Shown here: positions 1 through 55,915 of the stretch, in pieces
How positions within the stretch are numbered: the first letter of the stretch is position 1
Layout of the letters: every line of letters begins with the position of its first letter
Source of the DNA: Bugula neritina
Lineage: Eukaryota; Animalia; Bryozoa
DNA length: 64,000 bases
Direction: 5' to 3'
Assembly (NCBI GenBank): GCA_964035545.1
Contig: OZ037767.1
Coordinates: forward strand, 10,984,581-11,048,580
The notes under the pieces: generated by a model
What the model saw: the letters and a program-made list of their open reading frames with translations, nothing else
Told to the model about the DNA's origin: nothing
Database searches by the model: none
Made by a program: the position numbers and the translations under genes

Positions 1-17
1 CAATTTTTTTTCTATAA

Positions 18-1728
18 GGTATCATTGTCATTCTATTGGTATCATTGGTACCACTGTTGGGAATTGTTTATAATAACTGCCATACTATCTGGGATGAAAT
101 GTTTCCAATCCACCTCAAACCTTCTAGTACTCCTGTGAAGTATGCCTGATCCAAATTAGCAAGAGTTTTGCAGATAAATATAATTTTTTACACTGCTTAG
201 GTAATGGCTACATGCTAATAAGCATCATTACAATATAAGTTTGTTAAATTCAATTCAACCCCTGGTTAACATAACTTTTTTGTAATTAATTAGTCTTTTA
301 AGCTTAACAATTATGCCAGCTAAATATAAACATCATTATCACAATATTTGACTCAAGTCATGAAAAATACATTTTGTTGAAGGTAGACTTGCATTCATAT
401 TTTTAGTATTGCACTTGTTTGATAATGTTATAGCATGTATTATGCTTGCAGGTGCTTTGGATGGAAAGCATACTTAAATATAGCCTTGGAGCCGCCTGAA
501 TTTTTACATGTAAAAAATCAAGCGGCCCTCCATTCAAGGCTCTGAGTTTTTCAACTATAAACAATTACACTCAGTCAATCTTAATATTAACATGGCTATG
601 TGTGATACCGAGCAAAAATTCACATTTATTGATGTTGATCAACCTGGGTGTTGAAGTGATTCAGGAGTATTTGAAGTTTTGGAAATGCTTTGCTTTATGG
701 TAAATTATTGCATTTTCTCTCATATTTAAAAGAAACAAGGGCTTTGATTGTGAAAAAATTGTTGATTAAATTTATGTTTCATATGTTTATGTTTATGTTT
801 CATATGTTTCTACACGTAATTTATCATGTATGTAGGTATATTTACAGGCCATATCTCACTGTCCCATGAAGAATCACTTTAAGATTTTCCAACCCCCCCC
901 CCTCACACTGCTTTGTGGCTGATAAAACCTTACCATTAAGAACCTGGATTACGACGTGGAGATATCTAGATAAAAAAGACTTTACAACTAAACTATAGAC
1001 TGTCTAGAGTTAGAAGAGCAATTGAAAACGCCTTTGGTGTCTCATCATCTAGATGGAGGCTTCTTCTCACATTAGGGGATCCTGCTAACATAGTTTGTAT
1101 GGTAAAACAATGTGCTTGCTACACAATTTTGTGAAAACTCCGGAGCCTGTACTTTATAGACTGTTGTAGTTCTGTGCACCACTAATTGGGGGTTTATTGT
1201 ATACACGGAATGCTACTGCTTATTTAACTATCAGGTTATGTAAAGAACCGAGATACCTAGTTGACATTTCATCAAAAACTGTATTAGATGTCTAATTACA
1301 TACAATTGGAATCATGCAAAATATTAAAGTACTATAATATCAAAAGCAGTTGTATAAGGTTATCCTTGTTTATCTACAGTTTATATCCAAGAGGTTGGTC
1401 TTGATTAGCCAGTGTAGGGAGTGATGCACGAAGTTGCGGCATTGCTAACAGTGTTGTAGTCTCTTGGAACTTTAGGCCTCATAATACAATACAAGTACTT
1501 AGGTAGTGGGTACTGGGGGGTATACTTTCCACAGCCACTACATAGACCACCCGGATTTGTGGATTCTAAAGATTTGGTTAATGGTAACTGGAGAAATGAA
1601 GATTTTAATTTTAATGTCACTGCAAGATTCTAGGAATTCTACTAGAAGTGCTAACAATAAGAGAGAGAATTTCTGCAGATAATTCAATTCCAATCTGGGC
1701 AGTGTAAAATGGCGGAAAAACTATTAAT
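18..1728 (+). pseudogene. Decayed, intron-containing PIF/Harbinger (DDE_Tnp_4, HARBI1-like) transposase; 5' end lies outside the window
   Basis: Manual translation gives ordered Harbinger motifs broken by stops and frameshifts: CHTIWDEMFPIHL (~80-120), GALDGKH (~451), DQPG..SDSGVF (~637-672), FVAD (~912), YRLSRVRRAIENAFG..SSRWRLL (~995-1065) and C-terminal KRENFC.*FNS..GSVKW (~1658-1715). Confidence 0.8.
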
Positions 1729-1867
1729 TAAACCACTTGGAATAGTTGCAAAAATCATTTATTTCAAATAACAGATGTATGTGTTGATAAAATGTCTAAT
1801 TTTATTTAATTATGTAAATAAAAAATACTTTTCTATAGTTTCAACAAATACTAGTATGTAACATGAT

Positions 1868-3100
1868 AATCATGGTCATTAAAAAACGTTGAAGTAACCT
1901 TTTCACTCAAAGCCTCACCAACTGTTTGTAGCAATTTTGCTCGAGTTAAAACTCTTTTAGCTGGTGGCAAATGTCGCAGCTGGGAAGATAGATTTATTGC
2001 AAAATGATAACCATCATCTTGTTTAATCATTTTATCGATGTTTTCTTTTATATAGTGTCAAACTGCTTTAAAAAGCTTGGTTCTGTTTGCTTTCTCTTCA
2101 TTGCCTTAGGTGTTTTTTTATGAAACAGAGCCACTCACAGTTGAGCTGCAGTTGCTGATTGCTGAAACATCAGAATTTAGAGTTCAGGACAATTCCTATT
2201 CTGCATTAACATTTACTGAGATTGATGGTGGTGAGCTAGAGGTAGTGGGCAGTTCTTGTGGTGACGCAGCTTGGATTGCAGACTCTTCTGCCTGTGAGTC
2301 TGAGAACTCTATGGGTATACATAGTTACTGTTTGTACTGAAAGAACAAGACTTGCAATTTCAGTCACAAAACAAAAATGTTTTATATCAAATCACTTTAC
2401 CAGTTTTAGTTTGAAACCGTGCAAAACACATTAAAACAAGATTGCTGAGTTTATATACTTTGATTGTTGTTACTGCCCTTGGCAAAAATATGCTCAATAA
2501 ACAAATTTTTCCCAAAAAAATTGCCAAGAAGATTCCCAAAACTTGGTAACAAGTCTTCCGCATAACCTGGGTATAAACATAACCTAGCAAAGGTAGGGCA
2601 CACACAACGGTCACCCAAACCACAATGACATAACCATGCACAGATCTAGTAGCCAGCAAAAAGCATGTGTTTCAAGACATAAATAGGAACTTTAACAAGC
2701 TGGTGACGTCATGGTTATTTCAACAACATGGTGATAAATGCTGTGGGTATTACACAGTCATCTACAATTGTGTAGACTTTGATGATGTATGCTAAAACTT
2801 GACACATAATTTTTTTTCTTATAAAAGTTCCAAAACCATTGCATGTTGTCCCAAAGCTGCCACAACAGCTTTTTTAGCATTGCTGCTTCTTCAGTAAGTT
2901 TTTTGACATTTGCTGCATATGAGTCACGAATATCCTTCCACATCTTCATTCTAGACTCAACTAAATCTCTATCGCACACACCTGCCCACACACAAACACA
3001 ATATTTTCTAAATTTATGCTTGATTTCTAGTAATAAAAAATGATTGAATCTGTACAATTTCACAAATTCCAAGGGTGTTGAGTGTCAATATGGCACAACT
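1868..3100 (-). pseudogene. Decayed MADF/Myb-SANT DNA-binding gene with BESS-like C-terminus (Harbinger accessory gene, convergent with the transposase)
   Basis: ORF 2758-3072 contains MADF-like KMWKDIRDSY...WQLWDNMQWF. Minus strand ~2030-1915 reads DDGYHFAINLSSQLRHLPPAKRVLTRAKLLQTV (BESS-like). The Ser-rich linker has stops. A two-gene layout is typical of Harbinger elements. Confidence 0.65.
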
Positions 3101-3278
3101 TTTGAGTACTATTGAAGCCAGTTGTGGTTAATAACTATATTGTTGTAATTTTATGCTGCATGGTTATTGCCAGAGTAAAATAACTAGGGGCACTTAAGAG
3201 GCTAATGCTACACCCAGAAAAATGCACTCAATTTGTCAGGAAATGAGAGAGAAAATGAGAATTGCCAGTCAGTGATAG

Positions 3279-3801
3279 TGTATTTGAGACCTGCTAACTA
3301 GAGAGTCCAGGTCTGACTCTTTACAGTAGACTAATAGTCAGAATATAATGCAATTATATAAGAGCAGAACGTTACACAAAAACTGCTTCAACCCAACTCA
3401 CTGGCTGAGGCAGTCCACCTCACTTATATGAGTTGGACAATTCATCCTGATTGGATGACTGTTCAGACATCTAAATCAGCAGATTTGGAACACCTAAAAC
3501 CCCACCCAAAGTCCCAATCAGCAGTCGGGCTCCCCAAATGCCAGTTTATGGAATTTGACTAAGCTGACGGACTATATCAATCTTACACCAGTATTTAAAA
3601 TTAGCCAATCAACACACAGGGAGTACAAACATGATAGAAATATAAGAATACACATGTTGAGTATAAAAGTAAAAATATTGATTGCTGGAACTGTAAGGCT
3701 GAGGGCACACAGTTGCTTAATACTGGGGCAAGGTTATAACACATAGCGCCACAGGCTATGTAAGGGGGATAATAATATAATGCCCGGCCAAATCTATTAC
3801 A
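3279..3801 (-). repeat. Putative 3' LTR of the relic Gypsy element (different LTR family from 9367-9671)
   Basis: Starts TGTAATAG immediately after the PPT. Contains CCAAT boxes and a TATAAG. The end at ...AAATACA (3279) is a best guess; there is no second copy to confirm it. Confidence 0.5.
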
Positions 3802-4096
3802 TCAGCCCTCTCACATCAGAAAGCACGCCTTTCCGATAGAGAAGAGAAGACGACGACAACAAGAAATAAATAAAAGTTGAGATACAAGATGAAAAACGGA
3901 ATTTTAAAATGAATTGATAGTACAAGAATAAAACAAAAAACTGACTGGTTTTATCGGATAAGAATAGGTACAAAAAATGTTATAAAGAACAGTGTGAAAA
4001 GCATTACTATTGGAATGTTCACTTGTAGATGCAATAATGATACTATTATATATAATGAGTAGCACCGGGTCTATGGTAGGACAGCAGTCGCCAGTG

Positions 4097-4983
4097 TTAG
4101 GAGTGGGATTCCTGATTGCAGAGATAATGTCTTAGTCGGGTAACCTCTGCCATGCACTGCTCCAGACTCCCAGAGAGAGAAGCGAGTCGCCCTTCAAGGA
4201 TTATCAGACGGTGGCTTACTCCAGTGTCTGGGACAGAGGGGGGGTCACAAGATCCCGTGCTTCTTCTTCGCCGTCGTCGGTATACTGGTCCTGAAGCTTC
4301 CAAAGAGGGGGGTGCCGGTGGTATGAAGGCGTTGAGGCTAGGTGCAGTTCCCATATTAGGCAACACCACTGGCAAGGGCTGTGTACGAGGAGGGTCACTT
4401 CTTGGGTGACAGATATTCTCCTCGTCTTCTGAAGTGGGTCTGGTAGCGGGGAACCCCTGTAGCAGCCGGTCTCGCTTGTGCATGTCTTTTACATATGGAA
4501 GAATCAGGTCCCGAAACTCAGCAAAGCTAGTACTATCCACCTCGAAGATCTTGCCCATGTGGCAACGGGCTAATCTTTGGTGCTTGAGTAAATAATCCCT
4601 ATTGTAACTGTACTCGCCACACAGGCAGAACGTGTTGGTGAAATGCTGAGGCACGTGCACCCGTAACCTCCTATGAGAAGTGAAGGTCCTCCGACATTTA
4701 CGGCATTTAATGTTACTGGGGTCGCCACAGATGGCATTGATAGCTGCACGGGTTTGAATGGAGGTCCAGTGCGACTGCATATCCAAGGCGCGTGGCAACC
4801 GGATTTCTGCTGGTGTGGGTGTCGCCTCAGGGGGGATTTGCACAGTAGTCGGTGGGGTAATTGGAGGAGTAGGTAGAGTGTAGTACACTGTGAGTGGCAA
4901 CAGGGAGCCGGCAACCTTGCTAGGGTGTAAGAACCCATCAGGTTGGGCTGAATTGCATCCCTCATTACTGGAATGAGTCTCAC
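4097..4983 (-). CDS. Gypsy ORF3-derived C2H2-type zinc-finger/coiled-coil protein (probable terminal exon starting at splice acceptor 4983; the open frame extends to 5089)
   Basis: Uninterrupted frame with CRKC..F.SHRRLRVHVPQH..FCLCGEYSYNRDYLLKHQR, an RRRRRR basic patch and a C-terminal heptad segment. Clearly homologous to ORF 15164-16237. Acceptor-like ctcttattgtag|G at 4984/4983. Confidence 0.75.
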
Positions 4984-5266
4984 CTACAATAAGAGCAGCA
5001 CCATGAGTAGGGCGACATGAGCAAACCAAACAGCTCCACTGGCTCCGTGAAAGGGTTAATGCACTGCACCAGGAACTCCCCTCAACCATTCAGCCGATTC
5101 AGGCTGTTGGCGAGCTGTACCTTCCTGTGCACCCCTTCTACGACTCCAACTCGGAGATTTCCCTACAGTTCACAGTGCAGTGTAGCCTGGGAAACAGGGT
5201 TAGGTCTTTGACGCAAGCAATTTAGTATAATTAAATGTCAGCTCTAAAAAATTGTGCATGCATTAC

Positions 5267-5362
5267 CTGTCTCAGCAACTTCCTCATGACCATCAAATGA
5301 TTTGACTGAATTAAAGTTGTTAACTTCTTCCTCTTCAAGCTCAAAATACTCAACTTTAACAT
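5267..5362 (-). CDS. Putative 96-nt phase1-phase1 coding exon (D)VKVEYFELEEEEVNNFNSVKSFDGHEEVAET(G)
   Basis: Flanked by acceptor ccatataactttctttag| and donor CAG|GTAATG. The frame is open and acidic with a VKVE motif. Phase-compatible with 7961-7931 upstream and 4983 downstream. Confidence 0.5.
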
Positions 5363-6373
5363 CTAAAGAAAGTTATATGGAAGTAACAAATAAAAACATT
5401 GGCAAATTTTTACTTTCATTGCATCTCTCAGGTTAAAATGAACTTATTTTCTTTTGATCAACATGATGTTAGCTTCAATTTTTATATTCTATCATACAAA
5501 AGGAAAGTGAGAAAACCTTCACTATATCTGTGCCACTAACACTATACACAGACAACACAAGATGCCATATGACTACTAACCATTTGGTAGTTCAACTTCT
5601 TGATGACACACATCAATAGATTCAGGTGTTTTTACTCTTTCTACAGACACATAGACATACTATACAATGTATACCAGAAAAGCACATACTAGGTGTGAAT
5701 CTCAGTCTAGAAGAGAATGTAATCAGAAAGTAGATGGTAACGCAGGCTCTGAAACTCTGAGTTGCTGCTATAATTTGAGAAGCACAGACAACACTACACT
5801 AAAACTCAGTCTCACTCAACAGTACTTTAAAATTAGAGAAAATATATTTATAACAAAAATTTACATTGCCAGTAAAATACATGGACAGTAATTTACAGGC
5901 AGTCAATGATTTCATATCTGGTTTAAACACTAAACATTTTGAATAGTTGGTACCTAGGCATCATTATATAAATAATACAAAGCTACTAACCATCACAGAT
6001 GTCATGAGGTACAGGTTCAGTTTTGACTTTGTTCATAGTTGTATCAAGTTACTGGTAATAACAAAGCAAGGTTTCACGTTTATTTCGTATCTTCACATCT
6101 GCTATAACTAAAAAACATTCCGAAAATAAAATTATAATATAAACTTACTAAAAGCAACACTCACACTGCTACTACTAGTACTGGTGTTACTGTTGGAAAC
6201 ATCAACAGTCGCACTCACACTGCTTCATTGTCAGTGTTACTGTTAAGTGTTTACGGTTAATGTTACTTATAGTTATACTTATACTTATAGTATTATTTAT
6301 ACTATTAGTAAAGTATTACTATTAGTATTAGACTTAGTGTAAGTCTAAGAGTAAGTGTTACATTTACAGTTAG

Positions 6374-7698
6374 GGGGCCATCCATAAATTATGTCACACT
6401 TTATTCAGCACTTTTTGACCCCCCCTCCCCCCCTTGTCACAAAGTGTCACGCTTATATGACCCCCTCCCCCCATGTGATGTCACACAGATTATGTAAACG
6501 CCCTTTTAAGATTAAATACTCCATACAAAAAGTACTGATTGAATGGTTTATGTTTAGTAATCATTACAGGCACAAAGTTCAATATTTATGAATGCAACTT
6601 TTTAAGAACCTAAATTTATTCAGTGTATCATTATTATCCAATGACAAGAAAATCATAAACATTATTGAAACCATGCTTGATTTAATAAGGCAGGTCATAA
6701 GTTCTGGCCTATAACTGCTATTTTTACTGCCTCAGTGGTATTAAAGTTCCACTAGAGCATGAAGTCTGTTTTTCAACATCATAATAGTTAGTTTTCTTCG
6801 ATCCATGGTACTGTGGCCCATTCCTGGACTGAATGAATGATGGGTAGGGAATCTACAGGGATTGCAAGATCTTTTTGAACACTTGAGGTAATAGTATCCA
6901 AATCCTCCTCATCGATCCTCTTTGAAACCTCAACAAATTTTGCACCTGTATGGAGGTTGGTGTGGCTAGATTTTGCTTTCTGACTGGGAAAATACATCCC
7001 ACAAACCGGGCAAATACGGGGTTGTAATTTCCCAATCAGTGATGGACAGTACAGGTCAAATGGAAATATTTTGAATGTCTTTGCACATTGTGGGAGGATT
7101 GCTGATAAAGCGATTCGGGAAAACAGGGATCCGTAGTGTGAATCTATTAAGGTTTCGTCTGGCTCAGGAGCCACCAAACCATGCCTTGTTTGTTTGACTG
7201 GTACAGGAGGTGGTATGAACCTTCCAGGCAGTATGGCACGAATACTGCTTCGGTATGGCCTACAACAGGACTGATCATCACATTTTGTGATCTGCAAGAA
7301 ATACTGGCTTTGGAGAAGATGTTTTCTTTCCAAGTTTCAGAGAGTTCATCCCACATATCTTCTGTGTCTTCTGGAGGGACATAGACAGCGATGACAGGAT
7401 TACTGTCAATTACTGTTTTTGACCAGGTGCAGGTGCAGAGGTCAAGGAGTGGGATTTTTGCTAATTGGTCTGGGGAGGGGGGTCTGTTTTTATTGTGCTT
7501 TATATTGACAAAAAATACATGTATTTGATGTTTTATGTTCAGTATTAATACATATCTGAAATATTTTGTTTTGGTAAAATATTTGAAAATGTGACATCAC
7601 ACATATCTACCCTCCCCCCCTCCCCCTTGTCACAAACTGTCACACATGAGGGTACCCCCTCCCCCCCCTTGAGCGTGACATAATTTATGGATGGCCCC
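6374..7698 (-). mobile_element. Non-autonomous (internally deleted) Zator-like TIR DNA transposon, 1325 bp
   Basis: Perfect 24-bp terminal inverted repeats (TIRs) GGGGCCATCCATAAATTATGTCAC. A 3-bp TSD TAG lies at 6371-6373 and 7699-7701. Carries a transposase C-terminal fragment. The superfamily is assigned from GG termini, 3-bp TSD and recalled motifs, not from a search. Confidence 0.8.
6788..7333 (-). pseudogene. C-terminal fragment of a Zator-like transposase (no catalytic DDE region)
   Basis: H..QSQYFLQITKC.D..CC...RS...LP.RFIPPP and FDLYCPS...RICPVCG.YFPS..A..SH...H, lying inside the TIR element. Confidence 0.6.
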
Positions 7699-7930
7699 TA
7701 GTGTTACTCTCAATCTAAGTTTTAGAGAGTCAGAACTCAGTATTGTAATAGTATGGTTGAACTTGATAACATCAACTATAGTCATAAGTTGCAGTCACTG
7801 TCAGTGCGGATTGTGATTGCCCAAACTCATAGTGATAGTCACTGATAGATCATAGTCATACTCATAGCCAATTCCAATGTGAAGGTTATACTCATACTGA
7901 GCTATGGTTACACTTACCCGACTAACTTAC

Positions 7931-7961
7931 CGTTGTGTGTAATGAAAGTATCAGCATGCAT
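7931..7961 (-). CDS. Putative first coding exon MHADTFITHN(D)
   Basis: ATG at 7961, 31 coding nt, perfect G|GTAAGT donor at 7930, phase 1. Confidence 0.4.
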
Positions 7962-9366
7962 AGGAGTTTAAATAAAAAACAAAAGCATTGTGTCAAACAT
8001 AATCAACTTTAAATATATATTATAATTATTTTGTCCACCTGATAAATTAAAACTAGGGAATCACACTGGTTTACTTGGAACGGTTCTATAAGCAGCGCCA
8101 GTGCGGTCCATCAACTTTAACCCTTTGGCCTTTGCTATAACTATAAGTAGCTCCAAGTTGGGGGTGAATGAGTGCGATAGTTTGGATTCTCAAGTTTGGA
8201 GTTATAGTTTCAAGTTGGCATTTAATAGAGCTTTGTATTCCGTAGTATTAAGAATTCTACTGACGAACTGTATAATTATTATTGAGAAATCTTTTATCTG
8301 AATGGAAGTAGGCTATACAGTATCCAGTATAGTGCACTGAACTGGAAAATATATTATTTTGAGTTCATTAGTATAGTATATACTGACCCTACTGTTGCGT
8401 TTCCAACTAGTTAGCAGTGGGTCAAGGTCTCTCAGTGGGGAAGAAGCAAAAGCCTCAACAGCTCTGAATGATTCTATAAGGCATAAGCAGTTTCGGGTTC
8501 TTGAGTGTGGAGTTGAGTATTTTAATAACTTGAGAACCGCAAACTACTGCATTCAGTCACCCCCAACCTGGTGCTGCTTATAGGACCATTCAATAGTTAA
8601 TGACTACCACACTCCACCACCAAGCTGTAGTGGTCATGATTAATTTCACCACTATGACTATGTCTATTGAATTTCAATTTATTTTCAATATTAAATTTAA
8701 TATTATTAATAACAAGTCTAATACTAATAGTAATACTAATAGTGTTCATCTATTATTTCCCAATCATTATGATTAACCTAGACTCTAGAGTCTAGAGTAA
8801 TAATCGTAATACTTGATAGAATATTATCATTATGGGAATACCAGTACCACTTTAAATGTTTTCCTAAGCTGATTCTATATAACAATATCATCATATGAAT
8901 ATTATAATCAATATGCTATTATCATCATGATTATAATTATCATTATTAATAGTTAATACTATGATTATGAATTTAATTTAATTCATATTAAACTAACTCT
9001 AAGTAATTATATTTATTAGAATTAATGAATCATCATTATGATTATGATTATTAGTATTACTATGAGTATGACCATGACATTTATCATAATCATTTATGGC
9101 AATCATAGTGATAATGATGAGGCTACAATGAAGCAGCACATTGTGGTATACCAGCATGAGCACTGTATTCACTTTTACTGAGTTGCTGTATTTTTTTTTA
9201 ATCTGAAAACTAAATCTTACACCATCACCCATGCAGTCATAGTATTAGTTATTAGAATAACTATAAAAATTTATATTGTATTTATACTAATAACCATGAT
9301 ACAGCTTCACCATAAGCCATGGCAAGGCTAATTTTTTTTAATAAGAAATAGTCTTTCATATGATAT

Positions 9367-9671
9367 TGTGGTGGCTCGTGGAGCTACCAGCAACACAATA
9401 CGCAAGGTTGCGTATTGACCCGGAACAATGTATTAGCCAATTAGCTAAGCTGTTTGATAAGTAATAGTAGCCGCTTCGCGCTACTAGCTCAGTTGAGGAT
9501 AGTGCTGTAAACTAAATAGACATGCGTATCATTACTGTTGTACATTGGATTTTTATTATGTATTCTTGTATTAAATATAACGATATCTACTCGACTTAAC
9601 TGGTGAAGTTTCTCTAGTGTTAAATAGACTCTCTTGGTGGCACATCAACCCTAAATCTGAAAACTATAACA
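9367..9671 (+). repeat. 5' LTR
   Basis: TGTGGTGG...TATAACA; direct repeat of 16506-16810; Inr-like TCAGTT at 9489; ATTAAA poly(A)-like signal. Confidence 0.97.
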
Positions 9672-9672
9672 G

Positions 9673-9690
9673 TGGTGGCAGCGGTGGGAT
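9673..9690 (+). promoter_or_regulatory. Primer-binding site for tRNA-Leu
   Basis: TGGTGGCAGCGGTGGGAT is the exact 18-nt complement of the 3' end of metazoan tRNA-Leu(AAG/TAG), ...ATCCCACCGCTGCCACCA, and lies 1 nt after the LTR. Confidence 0.92.
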
Positions 9691-9704
9691 AGTGTATATC
9701 AAAG

Positions 9705-10571
9705 ATGGAGACTGAAAATGCTAGAATGCAACCACCCCCAGTAGAAGGTGAGCGTATAAATGCTGTTAATCCTGTGAATCGTGAAGGAGAAGAAGCTTAT
9801 AGACATTGCTTGAAAGCTCCCACCTTTACTGGGTCGGAAGATGTCGAACAATTTATACAAGAATTTAGAGAGGTAATGGAAGTTGCTCAATGGCCGCATA
9901 GAGTGGCCCTTATCAAATTGCGGAGGGCGGTGACGGAGCAAGCCAAGCCGTACGGAGTGGGAACGGACGTAGACGGCATACTGGCTGCGCTGCGGGCCCG
10001 TTTTGGCACCTCCGTCATAGACGCTAGGACCAAGCTGGAGAGATTGTGCCGCACCCCGCGGACCTCGCTGCAAGAACATGCCGCGACGGTGAAGAAGCTG
10101 GCGCAGATTGCATATAGCGATCTGCCAGCACAACACCAAGAGCGTTACACCTATGACGCCTTTGTCCAGTCCCTAAACGACCTGGGCCTAGACCATCACC
10201 TACGAGCTAAAGGGATAACCAGAATAGAGGATGCCCTGAAGGCTGGAGAAGCTTACCTGTTGGCTACCCAAATGCATCGAGCACAAAGGAACCCCCCAGT
10301 AGTTGGAGTCAGCGCTGCCAGGGCTACGACAGGCTCCGAAGCCCTCCCGCTGGAAGCCGAAGTGGACCGCATGATAGAGATGCTGGGACAATTGGTAACC
10401 ATTCTGGCCGGTGCTGGCCCCGGTCGGGCCTTGCGGATGCCCCCAACATCTGTGGGGCAGGGCTGGAGTAGCGCTGATCAGGACCAGGGACAGAAAGGAC
10501 GACCCCAATACCAGGGGGCGTTAAACTGTCACGGCCCGCGGACACACTCCCTCCCCGCGGGCCGCAACTAA
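9705..10571 (+). CDS. gag: Gag (capsid-like) protein, 288 aa
   Basis: First ORF after the PBS; PTFTGSEDVEQFIQEF..W-type Gypsy gag N-domain; no CCHC knuckle visible. Confidence 0.88.
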   Translation: METENARMQPPPVEGERINAVNPVNREGEEAYRHCLKAPTFTGSEDVEQFIQEFREVMEVAQWPHRVALIKLRRAVTEQAKPYGVGTDVDGILAALRARFGTSVIDARTKLERLCRTPRTSLQEHAATVKKLAQIAYSDLPAQHQERYTYDAFVQSLNDLGLDHHLRAKGITRIEDALKAGEAYLLATQMHRAQRNPPVVGVSAARATTGSEALPLEAEVDRMIEMLGQLVTILAGAGPGRALRMPPTSVGQGWSSADQDQGQKGRPQYQGALNCHGPRTHSLPAGRN

Positions 10572-10577
10572 AGGAGT
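10520..10577 (+). promoter_or_regulatory. Putative -1 ribosomal frameshift signal (G_UUA_AAC plus downstream stem/pseudoknot)
   Basis: The heptamer is in gag phase at 10520-10526. A perfect 10-bp GC stem (10532-10541/10555-10564) starts 5 nt downstream. Loop ACTCC can pair with GGAGT at 10573-10577. The -1 frame is open downstream. Confidence 0.7.
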
Positions 10578-10859
10578 ATGGTGGAACGCGACGTCGTCTG
10601 TCCGTACGGACACGGCGGAACATTCCACCCGAGTGGCAGGTACCACGCAGGACTAGTAGGCCCGCACAACGGCCCAGTACCTTCTCCCTGCCACTCGCTA
10701 ACCGGTTTCACCGGTTACCTCGGGAAGAGGAGCCCGCCACTGAAATGGAGCCAGAAGGCCCAGTGGAGAGGCCCAAACCCCGCCGGCACCAACCTCGCCG
10801 CCGGAAGCCCCGTAAACCACGGGTGAAACCCCCGCCGTCCTGTCAAACCAGGACAGCAC

Positions 10860-13800
10860 ATGCGGGGGGGGGTGAAAGTACAACCACATGGAGAGAGCTA
10901 TTTCCTACCCGGAAAGGTGGCCGGCAACGCCGTCACTTTCCTGCTCGACTCCGGTTGTACTACCAACCTTCTCAGTCGCAGAGTCTTTGAGGCACTGCCC
11001 CGCCGGGACAGGGATAGAGTACGACCGTATACTGGAGAGCATGGCACCCTGGCAGACGGGTCATGTATCCCCTTTTATGGTATTATCGAGCTCCCTGGGC
11101 GTGTCCGAGATCAGGCTGTACAGGAGACCTTTATCATAGGTCAACTGGAGGAAGATGCTATCCTCGGAATGCCCTTCTTGAAGCAACACCAGTGCCGAAT
11201 AGATTTCAGTAAATCGGTGGTGCTGATGGGCGGGCGAGAACTCGCCTGTGTGGATAAGTTTGGGCGTCCTCTGGTGGGCGGTGTTCAGGTAGTTCGAAAC
11301 TGCACCGTACCCGGACGCTCCAGAGCTACTATCCACTGCCGAGTGAACAGCAACCGGATAGCCAGGCTCGGGGTCGTTGAAAGCGCGCACGAAAAGATCC
11401 AACTCGCCAGTAGTTTAAACCGACTAACTGAGCGAGGGGAGGTCTTAGTGCAGTGCGTCAACCCCTTTACCGAGCCCATTGAGCTCCCAGCTGGGTCAAT
11501 GCTGGGCCGGTTCCATTCCGTCCAGGAAGAGGACGTGGGCCCGTCGCTGGGTGACGCGACGGAGGCACCCCCTCGACACCCTATTCAGGGACGAGGGGCA
11601 GTCCCAACACATCTCCGGGAGTTATACGAAACAGCCAGTGGCGGCTGCGCGAGTAACAGAGAACGCCAAGCTATGGCCAAGTTACTACGCGACTACGGTG
11701 ATGTGTTCAGCAGCGGAGAGCATGACGTGGGACTGACTGGAATTGTCAGACACGAAATACCGCTGACTGCAGGGACAACCCCTGTCCGGCAGCCCACGCG
11801 CAGGCTGGGGCCGGAGAAAGAGAAGGAGGTTAGCCGACAAGTACGGGATCTTCTGGACCGGGGACTGATAGAGCCCGCCCACAGTGCGTGGAGCTCGCCA
11901 GTCGTACTGGTCCGGAAGAAAGACGGCAGTTGGCGGTTCTGTGTGGACTACCGCAAACTCAATAGCGTAACCATACAGGACGCCTACCCTCTACCTCGTA
12001 TTGACGAGTCATTGGACGCCCTAGCCGGCAGCAAGTACTTCAATACGTTAGACTTGCTAAGCGGCTATTGGCAGGTTCCTCTGAGTCCCGACGCCCAAGA
12101 GAAAGCGGCGTTTATCACACGGGACGGTTTGTGGAAGTGGAAGGTGCTGCCCTTCGGGTTAACCTCCGCCCCAGCCACCTTCCAGAGGCTGATGGAACAA
12201 GTCCTTAGCGGACTCCACTGGAAGACACTGCTGGTCTACCTCGATGATGTCATCGTAATCTCTCCAGACTTCGAGACACATGTCAGTCGTCTGCAGGAGG
12301 TTTTCGAGAGACTCCGAGGTGCCGGTCTTAAGCTCAAACCTTCCAAGTGCGCTCTATTGCAGCCGGAGGTCAAGTACCTGGGGCACGTTGTCGGTCGAAA
12401 CGGCGTGGCAGCGGATCCCGAAAAGGTACGGGCAGTAGAAGACTGGGTCACCCCCCAAGACTTGACCGGACTCCGGGCTTTCTTGGGGCTGGTAGGGTAT
12501 TACAGGCAATACATACCAGACTTTGCGGGCATAGCCCAGCCGTTAAACCGGCTCACCGCAAAGGGAGTGACGTGGCAGTGGACCCCAGTCGAACAAGAAG
12601 CGTTCGACCGCCTCAAGGGCTGCCTATTAACGGCGCCCATCTTGGCCTACCCAGACCCCACTCTGGAGTACATCCTTGACACAGACGCCAGTGACCAGAA
12701 TGTTGGCGCTGTGCTGTCACAAGTGCAGGAAGGCCGAGAGGTAGTAGTAGCCTACTACAGCAAGTCTCTCTCACCCGCTGAACGAAATTACTGCACTACC
12801 CGCAAGGAGCTGCTGGCAGTAATCAAGTCAGTGAAGCACTTCAGACCATACCTATATGGCAGGAAGTTCCGGCTGCGTACGGATCATGCCTCGCTGATCT
12901 GGTTGTGCAGGAGAGCAGAGCCCTCTAGTCAGGTCGCCCGGTGGCTCGAAATCCTAGCTGAATTCTCGTACCGGATCGAACACCGACCGGGCAAGAGACA
13001 CAGCAATGCGGATGGGTTGAGTCGCCGACCTGACGGAGGTTGCAAACAGTGTCTCAACATCGAGAGGAGGGATGGAGGTCCCCCACGATGCGAGTTGGAG
13101 ACGCTGGCTCATCACGGAGCATCATTTGACTGGGATCAAGGTCAACTCAGGCAAAGAGTTGATGAATCCCCGGAGGATGTACAAAACCTCCGCGCCAACC
13201 CTGTACTGGCCGGTAATGTTCGAGAGCTGAAGAAGCTCCAAGAAGAGCTGCCTGGAGTCGTGGCAGACATATACCGGGCCAAAAGGGAAGGGCGACGACC
13301 CAGCGAGGAACGCATACGACAGGGATGCGCCGAGTTCCGGCTATACTGTCAGCGTTGGGACTCGCTGCGGATCGGGCAGGATGGGTTGCTAACCATCTCT
13401 CTAGCTGCCAGCGGCAGACACCCGGAAAGGAAGAGGGTAGTCTGCCCCACAGCCATCCGCCGTGAGTTGATTTGGGATACTCACAAGCAGGCCCACGCAG
13501 GGGTCAAGCGAGTGATATCCAAATTACGACTCCGGTGGTATTGGCCGCAGATGGAGCGTGACGTCCGGCTCAGAGTCAAACAGTGTGAGATCTGCCAGGC
13601 CAGTAAGCATAGCCGCCCCCCTGGTGAAGCAGGACGGCGGAGGCTATATGCTGGTAGGCCCTGGCAAGTAGTCGCTGTAGACCTGGTCGGACCCATGCCC
13701 CTGACCCCCAGAGGCAATAATTGGATCCTAGTACTAACCGACCACTTTACTAGGTGGGCGGATGCTCTGGCTATATCAGATGCATCAGCCCCGACAGTGG

Positions 13801-15146
13801 CCAGGGCGCTAGACCAACATGTATTCTGTTATTTTGGGCTCCCCGAACAGATACACTCTGATCAAGGCGCTCAATTCCAGTCTCAACTGATGAGCGACCT
13901 TTGCCGCCTCTGGGGAGTAAATCAGAGCAGGACCACCCCCTACCACCCTCAAGGTAACGGGGTGGTGGAGCGCAGCAACCGGATGCTAGGTGATGCACTC
14001 CGGAGTCTCCTCCTTGGACGAGGCCAAGAGGAATGGGATACGGTGTTGCCGCAAGTCATGCGTGCATACCGTAGCACCCCACACACCAGTACTGGTGAGA
14101 CCCCAAACCTCTTGATGCTCGGGAGAGAGACTCGTGTCCCTGACCATCTCACCTATCACGTTCCAGAGCAAGATAACTCAGTCCACGAGTATGCCAGTGA
14201 ACTAGTGGAACGGATGAAGGCCGCACACGATATACTGCGCCAACAGCAGTGGAAGGTGCGGCACGAAGATTCCGATGAACCACCTCTCTATCAAAGGGGA
14301 GATAAGGTGTGGATGGTCAATTACCGTAGGCGCCGCGGACAGGCTGATAAGCTGAAGCCTAAGTTCGTAGGCCCCTACGTGGTCGTCGAGGCTATGCCCA
14401 ATCATACGTACAAGATTGAGCGCTCAGGACAGGTGTCTATCCAGAATGAGTCTCGCTTGAAACCGTATTGGGCTAGCCCTGACGGAGTGGGAGAAGCCCC
14501 CCCGTTGTTAGAGCCCAGGAGGCAGACAACGACGCGCGGGCGACGGCGGCATGGACCTGAATACGAAGTGGTCATACCGCGGGAGGAAAACTTGGTGAGA
14601 GAGGAGCGGCAGCTTTTGTCAACAGAAGCGTGTCCGCCACCGCCAAGTCTAATTCCATCACTTCCAGAAACCGAGCCGGTTCCGGAAGTGCAAACCCCCA
14701 CGGAGGGAGGGGCTCCATCCGGAGAACAAGAAGAGGTGACCACTAACGGTGAAGTAGAGACGCCATTAGAGGCCCCTACTAACGAACCGGCAAGCGTGTC
14801 ACCCCCCCTAGAAAGGGGACAGCGTACGAGGAAACCCCCACCGTATTTGAAAGACTTCATATGTGACTGCATTAGAAGCGGCGCACATGAAAGTCTAGGG
14901 GAAAACCGTACGATAAAATGTTGGAGTTGTGAACCCCACGCAAATATCAACTTTTGCGAGGGCGGAATAGTGGGAGGAATTAATGCGCGTAAAGCAAATA
15001 GTTCCGACCTCGTGCCTCAGAAACGATGCTCAGCCTTTTCTTATGCTGACATCGCCAAAGGCAGACGTATCTCACAACCAGCTCCAACCTTACCAAGAAC
15101 GTTGAGTATGGACATTAATACCGAGTTCCCAGGTAAGCCAGTATAA
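10860..15146 (+). CDS. pol: Pol polyprotein: aspartic protease, reverse transcriptase, RNase H, integrase
   Basis: LLDSGC protease; WRFCVDYRKLN, LPFGL and YLDD RT; TDAS and RTDH RNase H; H-H-C-C zinc domain; VDLVGP/HSDQG/VERSNR DDE integrase; GPY module. The true N-terminus probably begins in the -1 frame at ~10520. Confidence 0.97.
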   Translation: MRGGVKVQPHGESYFLPGKVAGNAVTFLLDSGCTTNLLSRRVFEALPRRDRDRVRPYTGEHGTLADGSCIPFYGIIELPGRVRDQAVQETFIIGQLEEDAILGMPFLKQHQCRIDFSKSVVLMGGRELACVDKFGRPLVGGVQVVRNCTVPGRSRATIHCRVNSNRIARLGVVESAHEKIQLASSLNRLTERGEVLVQCVNPFTEPIELPAGSMLGRFHSVQEEDVGPSLGDATEAPPRHPIQGRGAVPTHLRELYETASGGCASNRERQAMAKLLRDYGDVFSSGEHDVGLTGIVRHEIPLTAGTTPVRQPTRRLGPEKEKEVSRQVRDLLDRGLIEPAHSAWSSPVVLVRKKDGSWRFCVDYRKLNSVTIQDAYPLPRIDESLDALAGSKYFNTLDLLSGYWQVPLSPDAQEKAAFITRDGLWKWKVLPFGLTSAPATFQRLMEQVLSGLHWKTLLVYLDDVIVISPDFETHVSRLQEVFERLRGAGLKLKPSKCALLQPEVKYLGHVVGRNGVAADPEKVRAVEDWVTPQDLTGLRAFLGLVGYYRQYIPDFAGIAQPLNRLTAKGVTWQWTPVEQEAFDRLKGCLLTAPILAYPDPTLEYILDTDASDQNVGAVLSQVQEGREVVVAYYSKSLSPAERNYCTTRKELLAVIKSVKHFRPYLYGRKFRLRTDHASLIWLCRRAEPSSQVARWLEILAEFSYRIEHRPGKRHSNADGLSRRPDGGCKQCLNIERRDGGPPRCELETLAHHGASFDWDQGQLRQRVDESPEDVQNLRANPVLAGNVRELKKLQEELPGVVADIYRAKREGRRPSEERIRQGCAEFRLYCQRWDSLRIGQDGLLTISLAASGRHPERKRVVCPTAIRRELIWDTHKQAHAGVKRVISKLRLRWYWPQMERDVRLRVKQCEICQASKHSRPPGEAGRRRLYAGRPWQVVAVDLVGPMPLTPRGNNWILVLTDHFTRWADALAISDASAPTVARALDQHVFCYFGLPEQIHSDQGAQFQSQLMSDLCRLWGVNQSRTTPYHPQGNGVVERSNRMLGDALRSLLLGRGQEEWDTVLPQVMRAYRSTPHTSTGETPNLLMLGRETRVPDHLTYHVPEQDNSVHEYASELVERMKAAHDILRQQQWKVRHEDSDEPPLYQRGDKVWMVNYRRRRGQADKLKPKFVGPYVVVEAMPNHTYKIERSGQVSIQNESRLKPYWASPDGVGEAPPLLEPRRQTTTRGRRRHGPEYEVVIPREENLVREERQLLSTEACPPPPSLIPSLPETEPVPEVQTPTEGGAPSGEQEEVTTNGEVETPLEAPTNEPASVSPPLERGQRTRKPPPYLKDFICDCIRSGAHESLGENRTIKCWSCEPHANINFCEGGIVGGINARKANSSDLVPQKRCSAFSYADIAKGRRISQPAPTLPRTLSMDINTEFPGKPV

Positions 15147-15163
15147 GTCTTGTATTCCTATTC

Positions 15164-16237
15164 ATGGAAACGGGCTCGATGCCAGTAAATTCTGAACTAA
15201 TTCAGCAGATTGAATCAGAATTACTGGGAACCACGTTTCATGTGAATGACGATGAAGACACTGTAATGGCCGATGGTCTGTTAGACCTGGAGCTAGACAC
15301 TGTTCTTGGTCAGTCCACACATGATTCATCAGTTCCTCGAGTGCATTCCAAAAGCTGTGACTCTCAGGCTAGCAACGGTCGACAGTCACTAGAATTAGGT
15401 TGTAAAGATCCACCGCGATCTAACACTAATTCTACTTTTGTAGACACACTCGCGCCCGTCTCTCCGGGCATGCCTTCTCTAGAGATGGCGTGGGACTCAG
15501 AGCCGGCCCCAACAACTTCTACAACCAGGCAACTGCCACCCCAGTTGGAAGCAACCTCCAACTGGATTACAACTGCCACAGAGAGAGAGATCAGGACCCA
15601 TCAAGGAGGTGAGGGTAATCGTGAATGCAACCTCTGCCAGCAGCGATTCACGACCCACCGCAGACTAAAAGTACACTTGCCGCAACACTACATCACCACT
15701 TTCTGCCCTTGCGGAGAATATAGCTACAATCGTGATTACCTGTTGCGGCACCAACGTACTATGCAGTGTTATCAAGGGCATGTCTATGAAGTAGACGAAT
15801 CATCCTATCCTGCCTTTCTCAACGCCATCAAACCACTCATCACTGACTCAGCTCGGCTATCTCGCCTGGAGCAAGGCTTCCCTTCCCCGCGACCCATCAT
15901 CTCTGGAGCCGCAGATAAACCTACACAGTCTACTAACTCTCCACCTCACAGTCCTATACGCATGCCGCATACCTTTCCTCGTGTCGTACTACAGAGAGTA
16001 GACACGAATGCGTATACACTCCCTCCTCCCCTTCCATCCTCAGAGCGGAAAAGACACAGGCAGCCAACTTCCTCTCGCTCGTCCCCCTGGGCCCGTAACC
16101 TACGTGAGGTAGAAGCTAGGGCGCATGACTTGGAGCAAGAAGTGTACAGGCTGGCCCCACGGGTACAGGCAGCATCCAGTGAACTCAAATATTTACAGGA
16201 GTCTATTAAACGCATGAAGCGTGCGGCCCGCAGTTAA
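15164..16237 (+). CDS. ORF3: C2H2-type zinc-finger protein with basic patch and C-terminal coiled coil (not env-like)
   Basis: 357-aa intact ORF between pol and the PPT: CNLC..RFTTHRRLKVHLPQH and FCPCGEYSYNRDYLLRHQR; RKRHR; LREVEARAHDLEQEVYRL..ELKYLQESIKRMK. No signal peptide or transmembrane segment. Confidence 0.85.
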   Translation: METGSMPVNSELIQQIESELLGTTFHVNDDEDTVMADGLLDLELDTVLGQSTHDSSVPRVHSKSCDSQASNGRQSLELGCKDPPRSNTNSTFVDTLAPVSPGMPSLEMAWDSEPAPTTSTTRQLPPQLEATSNWITTATEREIRTHQGGEGNRECNLCQQRFTTHRRLKVHLPQHYITTFCPCGEYSYNRDYLLRHQRTMQCYQGHVYEVDESSYPAFLNAIKPLITDSARLSRLEQGFPSPRPIISGAADKPTQSTNSPPHSPIRMPHTFPRVVLQRVDTNAYTLPPPLPSSERKRHRQPTSSRSSPWARNLREVEARAHDLEQEVYRLAPRVQAASSELKYLQESIKRMKRAARS

Positions 16238-16494
16238 CTCGAGTCTACCTACAACTCCCTACTACTCATTCCCCTACCTCTCTGTGGCATTCCCTACCGT
16301 AATGGTGGCACGTACTCTATATGTAGATAGGATCTTCTCTTGCTTATTACTTAGTGCACGTTATATATACCTGTATATTTTTTACCAGTTGTTTTATTTT
16401 GTATATACTTTTATACTGTTCTCTTACCCCCCCACAACGAAGTATACGTTTTTTTTATGTGAATCTTATTTTATCAGAAAGTGGGCTTTCTGCT

Positions 16495-16505
16495 GGAGGG
16501 GGCAG
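16495..16505 (+). other. Polypurine tract
   Basis: GGAGGGGGCAG immediately before the 3' LTR TG. Confidence 0.85.
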
Positions 16506-16810
16506 TGTGGTGGCTCGTGGAGCTACCAGCAACACAATACGCAAGGTTGCGTATTGACCCGGAACAATGTATAAGCCAATTAGCTAAGCTGTTTGATAAG
16601 TAATAGTAGCCGCTTCGCGCTACTAGCTCAGTTGAGGATAGTGCTGTAAACTAAATAGACGTGCGTATCATTACTGTTGTACATTGGATTTTTATTATGT
16701 ATTCTTGTATTAAATATAACGATATCTACTCGACTTAACTGGTGAAGTTTCTCTAGTGTTAAATAGACTCTCTTGGTGGCACATCAACCCTAAATCTGAA
16801 AACTATAACA
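16506..16810 (+). repeat. 3' LTR
   Basis: Identical to the 5' LTR except at 16573 (A vs T at 9434) and 16661 (G vs A at 9522). Confidence 0.97.
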
Positions 16811-54830: not shown

Positions 54831-55915
54831 ATTCTGGTCACAAAGTCAAATACCTAAGTCGAACTCTAAGGGCTAACCGCTAAGGTGAGGTTTTTTGTTG
54901 TTGTGTTTACATTCACTTTCAGTGAGTTCAACGGTATTACTATAACTATAAGTATAGCTAAAAGATATTGCCGCACAAGTCACCATAAGTATGACTGTAT
55001 GAGTAAACTCAACACTACATTAGTTTAATTAATTGACCACCTTACTAAACGAGATTTATGATTGTAAGTCACCACAAACAGATTTCCCTTCAGTTTCTAC
55101 CACCAATCCATATTTTATATGGAATTAAAAGTAAGTTTATAACTTGTTAATTTTTTAATTTTTTTAACGGCTAAAGTCTTTTGTATCTTTGTGATTAGAG
55201 TGCTTGGTAATTAATGATTCTAACATGCATAGTGAGTGTTTTGTGCACTGTAAAATTGCGTTCCAACAGCAGGGAGGTACAAATGTATCTATCAACTACA
55301 AGTATTAGTAAGCTTGCATGGTGCATTCTTTATTCTTAAGACACTTTTGTCTTTTTATAAGCGTGGCTTAAGATACATTTCTTTAATATGTTGAAAAAGT
55401 TCAGTGCGAGTTTATTTCATGTTTTCTACAAAGCTTTTAAAACCATTGCACTTTGACAGCAAAGCTGCCTGTGGTACAGTGTCTGGCTAAAAAGTCTCTT
55501 TGGTTTGTTTCAACACAAACATTTAAATAACCACCATCAGAACAAACAAAAATTTTGAAAAGCAGCAAGGGTTAAGGTCAAAGTGAACAATTTTTTATTC
55601 AAATCATTTACTCCCTCAGTGTCAGCTTGGATTTCCAATAGCTTCCATTAGGATAGATAACTTTTTTCAACAGTACTGCTGAATTGCATAATTAGAGTTT
55701 TTTTAATGCAGCATGTTGATAAGTATAAAAATGTTGGAGGCCTTATGCAAAAGCTTCAAATTTTCTTATATTCGAAAAGTTACCCTCAATAAAGCGCTGC
55801 TATAAACACATATTTTTAAATATGAATCTACAATTCTACATGTATTTGTAATTTTTGGAAGTGCTACAATTATAGTCATGGTTTTATTTATTTGCAGGGG
55901 TGAATTTATGCTACT

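Follow-up and report, generated by a model that had tools for sequence, protein, structure and literature searches.

Host genes taken from LTR retroelements, such as Arc, PEG10, the syncytins and GIN1, derive from the core genes gag, env or integrase. The gene described here, in the bryozoan Bugula neritina, is likewise a probable host use of an LTR-element protein, but its source is an uncharacterised accessory ORF and its route was exon capture. That route has been described for the host-transposase fusion genes KRABINER, SETMAR and PGBD3-CSB, in which the transposon domain lies on an exon of its own, is spliced through an acceptor of the element, comes later under purifying selection and can be joined to a host module that is used more than once (bioRxiv 10.1101/2020.05.07.082677).

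Positions 4097-6098 (minus strand) of the window, a 64,000-nucleotide stretch of contig OZ037767.1 that was analysed as a whole, hold a chimeric gene made of spliced host-type exons and a retrotransposon ORF3 exon. It is a variant of the host-transposon fusion gene, with a retrotransposon ORF3 in the place of the transposase: the captured part contains no transposase domain but an ORF3 homologue, which lies on an exon apart from the host part and is joined to it by splicing. Exon capture through an acceptor of the element, purifying selection and the apparent reuse of one upstream module are shared with the known fusion genes, whereas here the acceptor lies inside the ORF, the 5′ module is a 68-aa acidic segment with SUMO motifs that belongs to no known family, and the host is a bryozoan.

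Two other groups of proteins offer points of comparison. CERV of the Caenorhabditis elegans element Cer1 is also an LTR-retrotransposon protein that is additional to the usual set and is not env; it has a metal site rich in cysteines, helical parts for oligomerisation and a basic stretch that acts as nuclear signal (PMC10309623). The likeness to ORF3 is one of make-up only (basic run, helix and metal site), by description and not by homology, and might serve as a lead towards the handling of element RNA in the nucleus, as by a Rev/CERV-like export factor; a C4 finger is proposed for CERV, which is made from the spliced mRNA of Cer1 itself and is not domesticated. Ty3/Gypsy elements can also carry extra ORFs between pol and the 3′ LTR; those described in two accounts, in which the word zinc does not occur, are either env-like or plant ORFs in antisense (PMC7264820, PMC8220671). 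The ORF3 of a young element in the window matches those ORFs in position and sense orientation, and differs from them in its C2H2-based core and the lack of a Pfam family. No account of this gene, of Bugula transposons or of an animal Gypsy element with a C2H2 ORF3 came up in the literature covered, which excluded most subscription papers and repeat databases such as Repbase, where ORF3 may be recorded.

Gene structure and splicing

The earlier note on this locus had joined three segments (7961-7931, 5362-5267 and 4983-4097), and their splice signals are present and yield a stop-free join of 337 aa at the sequence level. Its central claim, that non-retroviral exons are spliced onto ORF3, could be checked at the junction 5267>4983, which appears in all four RNA-type runs (from four studies) and in none of the three genomic-type runs, the runs being assembled contigs and the RNA-type label a software guess. 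The shorter side of the junction comprises 30, 32, 98 and 98 letters in the four runs, three of which are above the threshold of 31. The 5′ end differs from that proposal. In all four RNA-type runs the exon 5362-5267 is joined upstream to 5640-5581, which is preceded in three (X10, X14 and X17) by 6098-5991, and X14 and X17 each hold the four exons on a single contig; the segment 7961-7931 is not supported as first coding exon. No joint to 7930 occurs among the 15 joints listed of 72, and the bin 7801-8112 has a depth of 0-0.2 in X10, X14 and X17, neither absence being counted as evidence.

The corrected model encodes a protein of 362 aa that begins MNKVKTEP. A public protein of 365 aa (P0016) is the full spliced product with an identical exon layout, from which the model differs at 31 aligned positions. 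In the other of two sequence types of the locus (X2 and X4) the 60-nt exon is one codon longer through a 3-nt insertion at 5627. The last intron measures 283 nt, and one contig of X7 (record 18) spans it unspliced.

Table 1. Features of the chimeric gene, the retroelement relic and the comparison element, in window coordinates
Feature	Position	Strand	Details
First coding exon	5991..6098	-	ATG at 6036; encodes MNKVKTEPVPHDICD; phase-1 donor; joined in X10, X14, X17; peptide also in P0016 and P0026
60-nt symmetric exon (phase 1-1)	5581..5640	-	encodes ERVKTPESID...; joint 5362/5581 with CT..AC ends in 4/4 RNA-type runs
96-nt symmetric acidic exon (phase 1-1) with VKVE	5267..5362	-	exon 2 of the earlier note
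Remnant of pol, broken, from the stretch that separates protease and RT	5031..5192	-	inside the last intron; tblastn 62% over 56 aa, E 5e-15, two stops
Acceptor region	4984..5030	-	derived from ORF3 of the element (N-terminal coding portion)
Coding part of the captured, ORF3-derived terminal exon	4097..4983	-	zinc-binding core ~4412-4819; RRRRRR; predicted C-terminal coiled-coil helix
3′ untranslated part	3255..4096	-	covered by the same RNA contigs (X14 record 9, X17 record 14); polypurine tract ends at 3800; LTR-like start TG at 3799
Open ATG-to-donor segment	7931..7961	-	exon 1 of the earlier note; sequence correct, absent from the joined forms seen
Young Gypsy-type LTR retrotransposon, comparison element	9367..16810	+	has gag, pol and, at 15137-16237, an extra ORF3 that belongs to the same protein family

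The RNA contigs run on beyond the coding exons at both ends. In X10 and X14 what precedes 6098 finds no match within the window, with best scores inside the shuffled range, and the first untranslated exon and the promoter are therefore unplaced. Downstream, where the earlier note had the 3′ LTR supply the transcript end, the RNA contigs, which by their nature do not show transcript ends, continue through the LTR-like stretch to 3255 and farther, and the minus strand of 4096-3150 contains neither AATAAA nor ATTAAA. A public B. neritina gene model, KAF6037487.1 (P0026), has the same three 5′ exons, skips the relic and uses a short exon at ~2336-2240 instead, so that the gene may possibly have a second isoform. 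The depth is 0 in all four RNA-type runs both in the bin 2185-2496, which holds that last exon, and over the MADF-like piece (2809-3120); these absences are not counted as evidence.

The relic and the origin of the captured exon

The stretch 5192-3255 is a relic and not an LTR retrotransposon, given that it lacks two LTRs, gag and a whole pol and retains 56 codons of pol, ORF3, a polypurine tract (PPT) and one LTR-like start. The disrupted pol piece that the earlier note had seen in the intron is indeed there: 47 nt upstream of the captured exon and in the same orientation, it aligns by tblastn with residues 165-220 of the pol of the young element, with two stops and a two-residue gap. Numerous related copies of this piece are present in the genomic-type runs (depth bins 4981-5184). 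The captured exon is 47% identical to the ORF3 of the young element over 132 aa, and the PPT and TG downstream of it resemble the PPT region of that element. The element-derived part has a GC content of 53%, whereas the 5′ exons and introns have 30-35%.

The acceptor itself appears to have been supplied by the element, from inside its own ORF3, because the homology to an ORF3 relative (P0002) includes the codons that precede the AG in the intron: the last 15 of them align with residues 21-31 of that protein and score above 2000 of 2000 shuffles. Three distant members of the ORF3 family also carry a pol-tail-like motif before the zinc core.

The young element, with LTRs that are 99% alike, a 4-bp target duplication and the order PR-RT-RH-IN, is a Ty3/Gypsy LTR retrotransposon. 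The earlier note had called it a young copy, 1.4 kb away, among related elements; a relative it is, but of a separate family, since its ORF3 forms its own branch of the tree, apart from the family of the relic.

Conservation between two sequence types

Whether the relic is fixed was a question raised by the earlier note. It is present in all three genomic-type runs and occupies one position in two sequence types that differ by about 6% and are probably Bugula neritina sibling species; of 19 rows listed, 18, with a share of 6-7%, are a diverged type of the same locus. It is contiguous with the 96-nt exon in X1, X2 and X4, one contig of X4 covering 4100-5654. No loose end of an empty site near 5200 is found among the 24 loose ends listed of 74, an absence not counted as evidence.

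Between the types, exon 4 shows 52 differences in 882 nt and 22 residue changes, which require 25-26 base changes; the bases were counted on an X14 contig and the residues on P0001, P0015, P0016 and P0017, possibly other than the product of that contig. The resulting dN/dS of 0.28-0.30 (binomial p 1.5e-5 to 5e-5), from one pairwise comparison at shallow divergence, suggests that the captured exon is under purifying selection and that the gene is conserved by it. In neutral simulations 22 or fewer residue changes arose in 1 of 5000 runs, and the frame stayed free of stops in 1154 of 5000; openness alone is therefore weak evidence. Exon 4 is without gaps between the types, against eight listed indels in the 671 nt upstream. 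In a comparison of the window with X1, which may be its own sample, seven of nine exon differences are synonymous (p 0.001). Residue changes are slightly rarer in the zinc core (7/121) than in the linkers (13/129). The depth of this comparison is far shallower than the more than 50 My used in the fusion-gene paper (bioRxiv 10.1101/2020.05.07.082677).

The ORF3 family and its predicted fold

The ORF3 family has 309 matches (clusters at 50% identity) and no Pfam entry; the loci were also sought in metagenome contigs and viral contigs, where none was found. A first model of the core, built from 16 sequences, was poor (pLDDT 52), and a confident model was later at hand for the 136-aa zinc-binding core (pLDDT 92, pTM 0.83). 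One C-x2-C-x12-H-x3-H finger (C39/C42/H55/H59 of the core) is 90-100% conserved in 92 sequences and gives PDB profile matches to C2H2 fingers from E 6e-9, although it falls under the Pfam cut-offs. The second zinc site is atypical (C-x-C-x12-H), and the model predicts helices and strands additional to the bead-on-string C2H2 fold. With this model Foldseek found no match at E<=0.001 in PDB or BFVD, although a known fold may have escaped it. The ESM Atlas returned only generic C2H2 clusters, at 0.89-0.91 and with low recognition. The second site, the extra helices and strands and the Foldseek result set the core apart from a classical tandem C2H2 array.

The 5′ module and its paralogue

The earlier note had asked whether its exons 1-2 are single-copy; the three 5′ exons are not. 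A paralogous transcript (X14 record 11) has all three, with 29 differences in 234 nt (12% of the DNA), and then continues into letters that translate to residues 5-14 of one of the 177 proteins compared, P0037, an ORF3-family protein 39% identical to exon 4; this next exon has no match within the window. Besides that in the gene, at least one copy of the module thus exists in both types (X14 record 11, X4 record 27 and the X1 loose end at 5281), and the depth over the 5′ exons is raised in X1. The paralogue points to a second capture or to 5′ shuffling: in a sister gene these three exons are likely spliced to the zinc finger of another retrotransposon, which suggests that the capture was repeated with one 5′ module. 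If so, there would be a repeated route for taming a poorly known transposon protein. In a tree of 46 rows and 118 columns (15 of 61 rows, near-duplicate or partial, having been dropped), P0037 is grouped with P0006, P0008, P0009 and P0031 (96/88), apart from the clade of the window (97/95), but an AU test on the same alignment does not reject a single clade of the gene and its paralogue (p 0.225).

Origin of the gene

The reading preferred here, which we regard as probable, is that of a spliced and transcribed gene of four exons, the first three short, AT-rich and in frame with a Gypsy-type ORF3 exon; it is likely domesticated, under purifying selection and predicted to be a nuclear regulator. 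As to the order of events, which we infer together with translation, SUMOylation and target, an element would have inserted in sense orientation behind one copy of a duplicated three-exon module and then lost gag and nearly all of pol. An AG in the low-complexity N-terminal part of ORF3 would have become the acceptor, and the module would have replaced the acidic N-terminus of the element with its own.

A host origin of the module is argued from composition and introns, and it is here that the least improbable of the alternatives applies, namely that the 5′ exons themselves come from a mobile or repeated element, so that both halves of the fusion would be transposon-derived. The extra copies and the raised depth in X1 would agree with it, as would the presence downstream, on this strand too, of what remains of a Harbinger-like element that includes a MADF-like gene (weak matches), and the outcome of searches for a host homologue of the module, which among proteins of fewer than 200 aa returned this locus alone and at 200-639 aa returned none. 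We nevertheless think it improbable, as the exons of the module are small, AT-rich and of phase 1, are separated by spliceosomal introns and keep their place in the two types; moreover, the module is unlike either LTR or the other repeats of the window, and occurs in P0026 without a transposon domain.

Far less likely is the reverse course, in which the zinc-finger exon is old and of host origin, the domain passed from genes of this kind to retrotransposons, and the pol piece entered the intron by an insertion that has nothing to do with the exon. The AU result leaves room for it; some members of the family (P0033 and P0057) resemble host genes with two domain copies, and the alignment of the 3′ untranslated part is just modestly over shuffles (a score of 75, the highest of 200 shuffles being 68). 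Yet pol remnant, ORF3, PPT and TG follow one another in the order and orientation of an element, the GC content of the captured exon is element-like, exon 4 is nested among several distinct ORF3 families and not outside them, and the homology to P0002 continues past the acceptor into intron sequence. Neutral exon trapping, in which splicing reads through into a decaying insertion whose frame is open by chance, would account for the unspliced contig in X7 and for the share of stop-free neutral runs, but is barely credible beside the synonymous excess in two separate comparisons, the absence of indels next to a pol piece with stops and indels, and the identical junctions in four studies.

Possible function and significance

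In line with the earlier note, the N-terminus of the fusion protein is acidic and carries SUMO-consensus motifs, two in number (VKTE and VKVE). Such motifs are short, and the ORF3 family has them no more often than expected by chance (14/172, against 10.3 in shuffles). The product would bind whatever nucleic acid or partner ORF3 proteins bind. The control of ORF3-bearing retroelements is the likeliest mechanism, tentatively held: the zinc core would keep recognition, the coiled coil would permit mixed oligomers, and a SUMO-acceptor tail would tie the complex to repressive chromatin. A general role as a transcription factor is about as open, and the role of a host regulator or dominant-negative of transposons is one that we only infer. 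It is also conceivable, if rather unlikely, that Bugula has a small and growing gene family in which a reusable SUMO-motif module independently captured the zinc-finger ORF3 from several Gypsy lineages. Every fusion would then serve as a repressor or decoy against its source family, in a KRAB-fusion-like defence built from a widespread, undescribed retrotransposon protein with a new zinc-binding fold.

The locus is a clean and recent example of a gene born through exon capture, from an animal phylum that has been little studied, and its intron still contains what is left of the donor element. The host gene provides a handle on the role of ORF3, a large family with neither a Pfam entry nor a structural match. 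The public gene model skips the captured exon, and similar genes may therefore go unnoticed wherever exons of this kind are handled as repeats.

Gene model and transcripts

The three minus-strand segments proposed in the earlier note (7961-7931, 5362-5267 and 4983-4097) are present, their splice signals are as described, and together they form an open frame of 337 aa, but the joined forms in RNA-type contigs have other exons upstream. Parts of the window occur in nineteen public runs, and four RNA-type runs from four studies were placed on window 1-9360, as contigs whose RNA label is the tool's guess. The predicted joint 5267>4983, which removes a GT-AG intron of 283 nt, is present in all four (shorter side 30, 32, 98 and 98 letters), as is the joint 5362/5581; three of the four also join exon 5640-5581 to an exon ending at 5991. 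In X14 and X17 a single contig carries all four exons and the 3' region to 3255, and RNA-type contigs run on through the LTR-like stretch downstream of ORF3, which the earlier note had proposed to supply the transcript end. None of the gene's exon joints occurs in the three genomic-type runs (X1, X2, X4), where the introns are covered. The corrected model (table) is matched in layout by a public protein of 365 aa, P0016, which derives from a contig of 2103 nt and differs at 31 aligned positions. Upstream of 5362-5267 the contigs have 5640-5581 and not 7961-7931. The latter is the sole open ATG-to-GGTRAG candidate within 5641-9360, which accounts for its choice, but the gene's actual donors read GTTAGT. 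It may yet serve as a rare alternative exon, with no support among the forms seen.

The earlier note had named one refuting case here: splicing over the relic, the remains of a Gypsy-type element, to another exon. The public model KAF6037487.1 (EB796_004207) does so, ending at about 2336-2240 (-); that model is, however, only predicted, and in four studies the joined forms go to 4983 instead. The chimeric gene is almost certainly real. The last exon of KAF6037487.1 reads the linker of the MADF-like gene in a different frame.

Features of the window discussed in the text
Feature	Position	Strand	Remarks
Corrected gene model	6036-5991, 5640-5581, 5362-5267, 4983-4097	-	all phase 1; 362 aa
Young element	9367-16810	+	apparently intact Gypsy-type; open extra ORF3 behind pol
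DNA-transposon-like insertion	6374-7698		27-bp terminal inverted repeats, 26/27 matching
Decayed Harbinger-like element	about 970-3084		DDE_Tnp_4 fragment and MADF-like piece facing each other
DDE_Tnp_4 fragment	970-1131	+	E 0.0065
MADF-like piece	2821-2967	-	E 0.0084
FAD-dependent oxidase gene	17399 onward	+	DAO-like start; ordinary host gene
Glycosyltransferase family 10 fucosyltransferase ORF	55904-57328	+	ordinary host gene

Element origin of the last exon

The relic keeps the element order of pol remnant, ORF3, polypurine tract and TG start. As described earlier, its pol piece is disrupted and intronic: 5192-5031, within the 283-nt intron, matches pol residues 165-220 of the young element (62% over 56 aa) with two stops. 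The last exon is 47% identical to the young element's ORF3 over 132 aa, and its GC content is 53%; the 5' exons and the introns have 30-35%. Fifteen intronic codons before the acceptor align to the N-terminal part of a relative, P0002, and beat 2000 of 2000 shuffles; the acceptor is therefore internal to the old ORF3, whose own N-terminus gave way to the 5' module. Acidic residues number 18 of 68 in the module and 12 of 50 at the start of the young ORF3. The young element has the Ty3/Gypsy pol order (protease-RT-RNase H-integrase), LTRs 99% identical, a 4-bp target duplication and no TM or env-type Pfam match; its ORF3 shares 73% identity with P0036.

The ORF3 family comprises 309 clusters (profile search, E<=0.001). 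No family-specific Pfam match was found in the 34 ORF3-search proteins scanned (E<=0.001), two of which match other kinds: P0057 generic fingers and P0078 an unrelated repeat protein. In the 136-aa zinc-binding core (92 sequences), C39, C42, H55, H59, C65, C67 and H80 are invariant or near-invariant, and likeness to ordinary C2H2 fingers is limited to the first finger. The predicted fold (pLDDT 92, pTM 0.83) has no Foldseek match in PDB or BFVD at E<=0.001; a C-terminal helix is confidently predicted. An R-rich motif situated towards the end of pol in the young element also lies upstream of the core in three distant family members, which suggests an old link between family and element. In P0033 and P0057, which may be further domesticated genes, the domain is present twice. 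A third transcript-type contig (X14 record 10, window 4536-4572) has an ORF3-family stretch that differs from the gene and probably comes from another member.

Sequence types and selection

P0026 (Bugula neritina KAF6037487.1) is identical to P0016 across the first 68 residues, which assigns the locus to the B. neritina complex. X1 and the window differ by about 1%; the type common to X2, X4 and X14 lies about 6% away from the window in the exon and 10% in non-coding sequence. The same split puts X1 with the window on one side and X2, X4 with the RNA-type runs on the other, although X1, X4 and three RNA-type runs carry one organism label; a cryptic species pair would fit this pattern. Given COI differences of 8-11.5% among B. 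neritina sibling species (PMC4183541), the two types are likely two such species. Across most of the exon, depth is flat and one type alone appears in each genomic-type run; the types are therefore counterparts of one locus and not two copies per genome. The relic is contiguous with the 96-nt exon in X1, X2 and X4 (a single X4 contig covers 4100-5654).

Exon 4 of the X14 contig aligns to the window without a gap and with 52 differences in 882 bases, and four cluster members (P0001, P0015, P0016, P0017) have 22 residue changes each, requiring 25-26 base changes. The dN/dS between the two types is 0.28-0.30 (binomial p 1.5e-5 to 5e-5), at shallow divergence and with base and residue counts from different records. 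So few residue changes arose in 1 of 5000 neutral simulations; a stop-free frame was kept in 1154 of 5000, so openness alone is weak evidence. X1's contig differs from the window at 12 sites in all, nine within the exon, seven of them synonymous (p 0.001). Of the indels listed for X4 (eight more table rows lie beyond these), the exon has none and the 671 nt ahead of it have eight. The differences postdate the insertion and therefore reflect selection on the host locus; the gene has very probably been domesticated.

A second transcript with the same 5' exons

The earlier note had proposed checking whether its exons 1-2 are single-copy; the 5' exons are not. X14 record 11 (1447 nt) carries all three with 29 differences in 234 nt, exits the third 12 nt early and enters other sequence; the genomic-type runs likewise show a second copy, at an X1 loose end (5281) and in X4 record 27. 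Read in phase 1, the 30 letters after the exit, on this one contig, encode residues 5-14 of P0037, the sole match among 177 proteins. This ORF3-family protein and exon 4 share 39% identity over 236 aa.

The module and exon 4 have diverged to a similar degree from one sequence type to the other (7.4% and 5.9%). In the comparison of the paralogues the differences are 12% in DNA for the module and 61% in protein for the last exons; the module was therefore duplicated or homogenised long after the ORF3s split. In the tree P0037 groups with a multi-copy ORF3 family (96/88), separate from the window gene's clade, but a single clade of P0037 and the window gene is not rejected by the AU test (p 0.225). 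Independent capture of two ORF3s by one 5' module is the somewhat likelier history; the alternative is one capture with later duplication and 5' conversion. The 5' module has no known host homologue.

Possible function and comparison with known systems

SUMO is reported to act in transposon silencing (10.1101/533091, 10.1101/2021.07.27.453956), and the SUMO motifs in the gene product are short. The gene may regulate its source elements, though this is somewhat less likely than not. Precedents for the roles raised in the earlier note, host regulator or dominant-negative of related elements, are a truncated Ty1 Gag that acts as a dominant-negative and the anti-silencing VANC accessory proteins (both PMC6719617). 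CERV of Cer1 (PMC10309623) offers a functional lead for ORF3 by its likeness in make-up. The gene resembles the host-transposase fusions described in bioRxiv 10.1101/2020.05.07.082677 in capture by splicing, an acceptor from the element and later selection; its captured part is not a transposase, however, and it is therefore not one of them. Literature searches turned up nothing on this gene or this ORF3.

Neighbouring features

The DNA-transposon-like insertion, which separates 7961-7931 from the real exons, has broken reading frames, a weak C2H2 match and many near-identical copies in X7. The Harbinger-like element has, by eye only, a BESS-like tail. At about 3541-3525 (-), an odd position behind the 3' LTR, CA is followed by a G-rich run reminiscent of a primer-binding site, perhaps the trace of a tandem or nested element.
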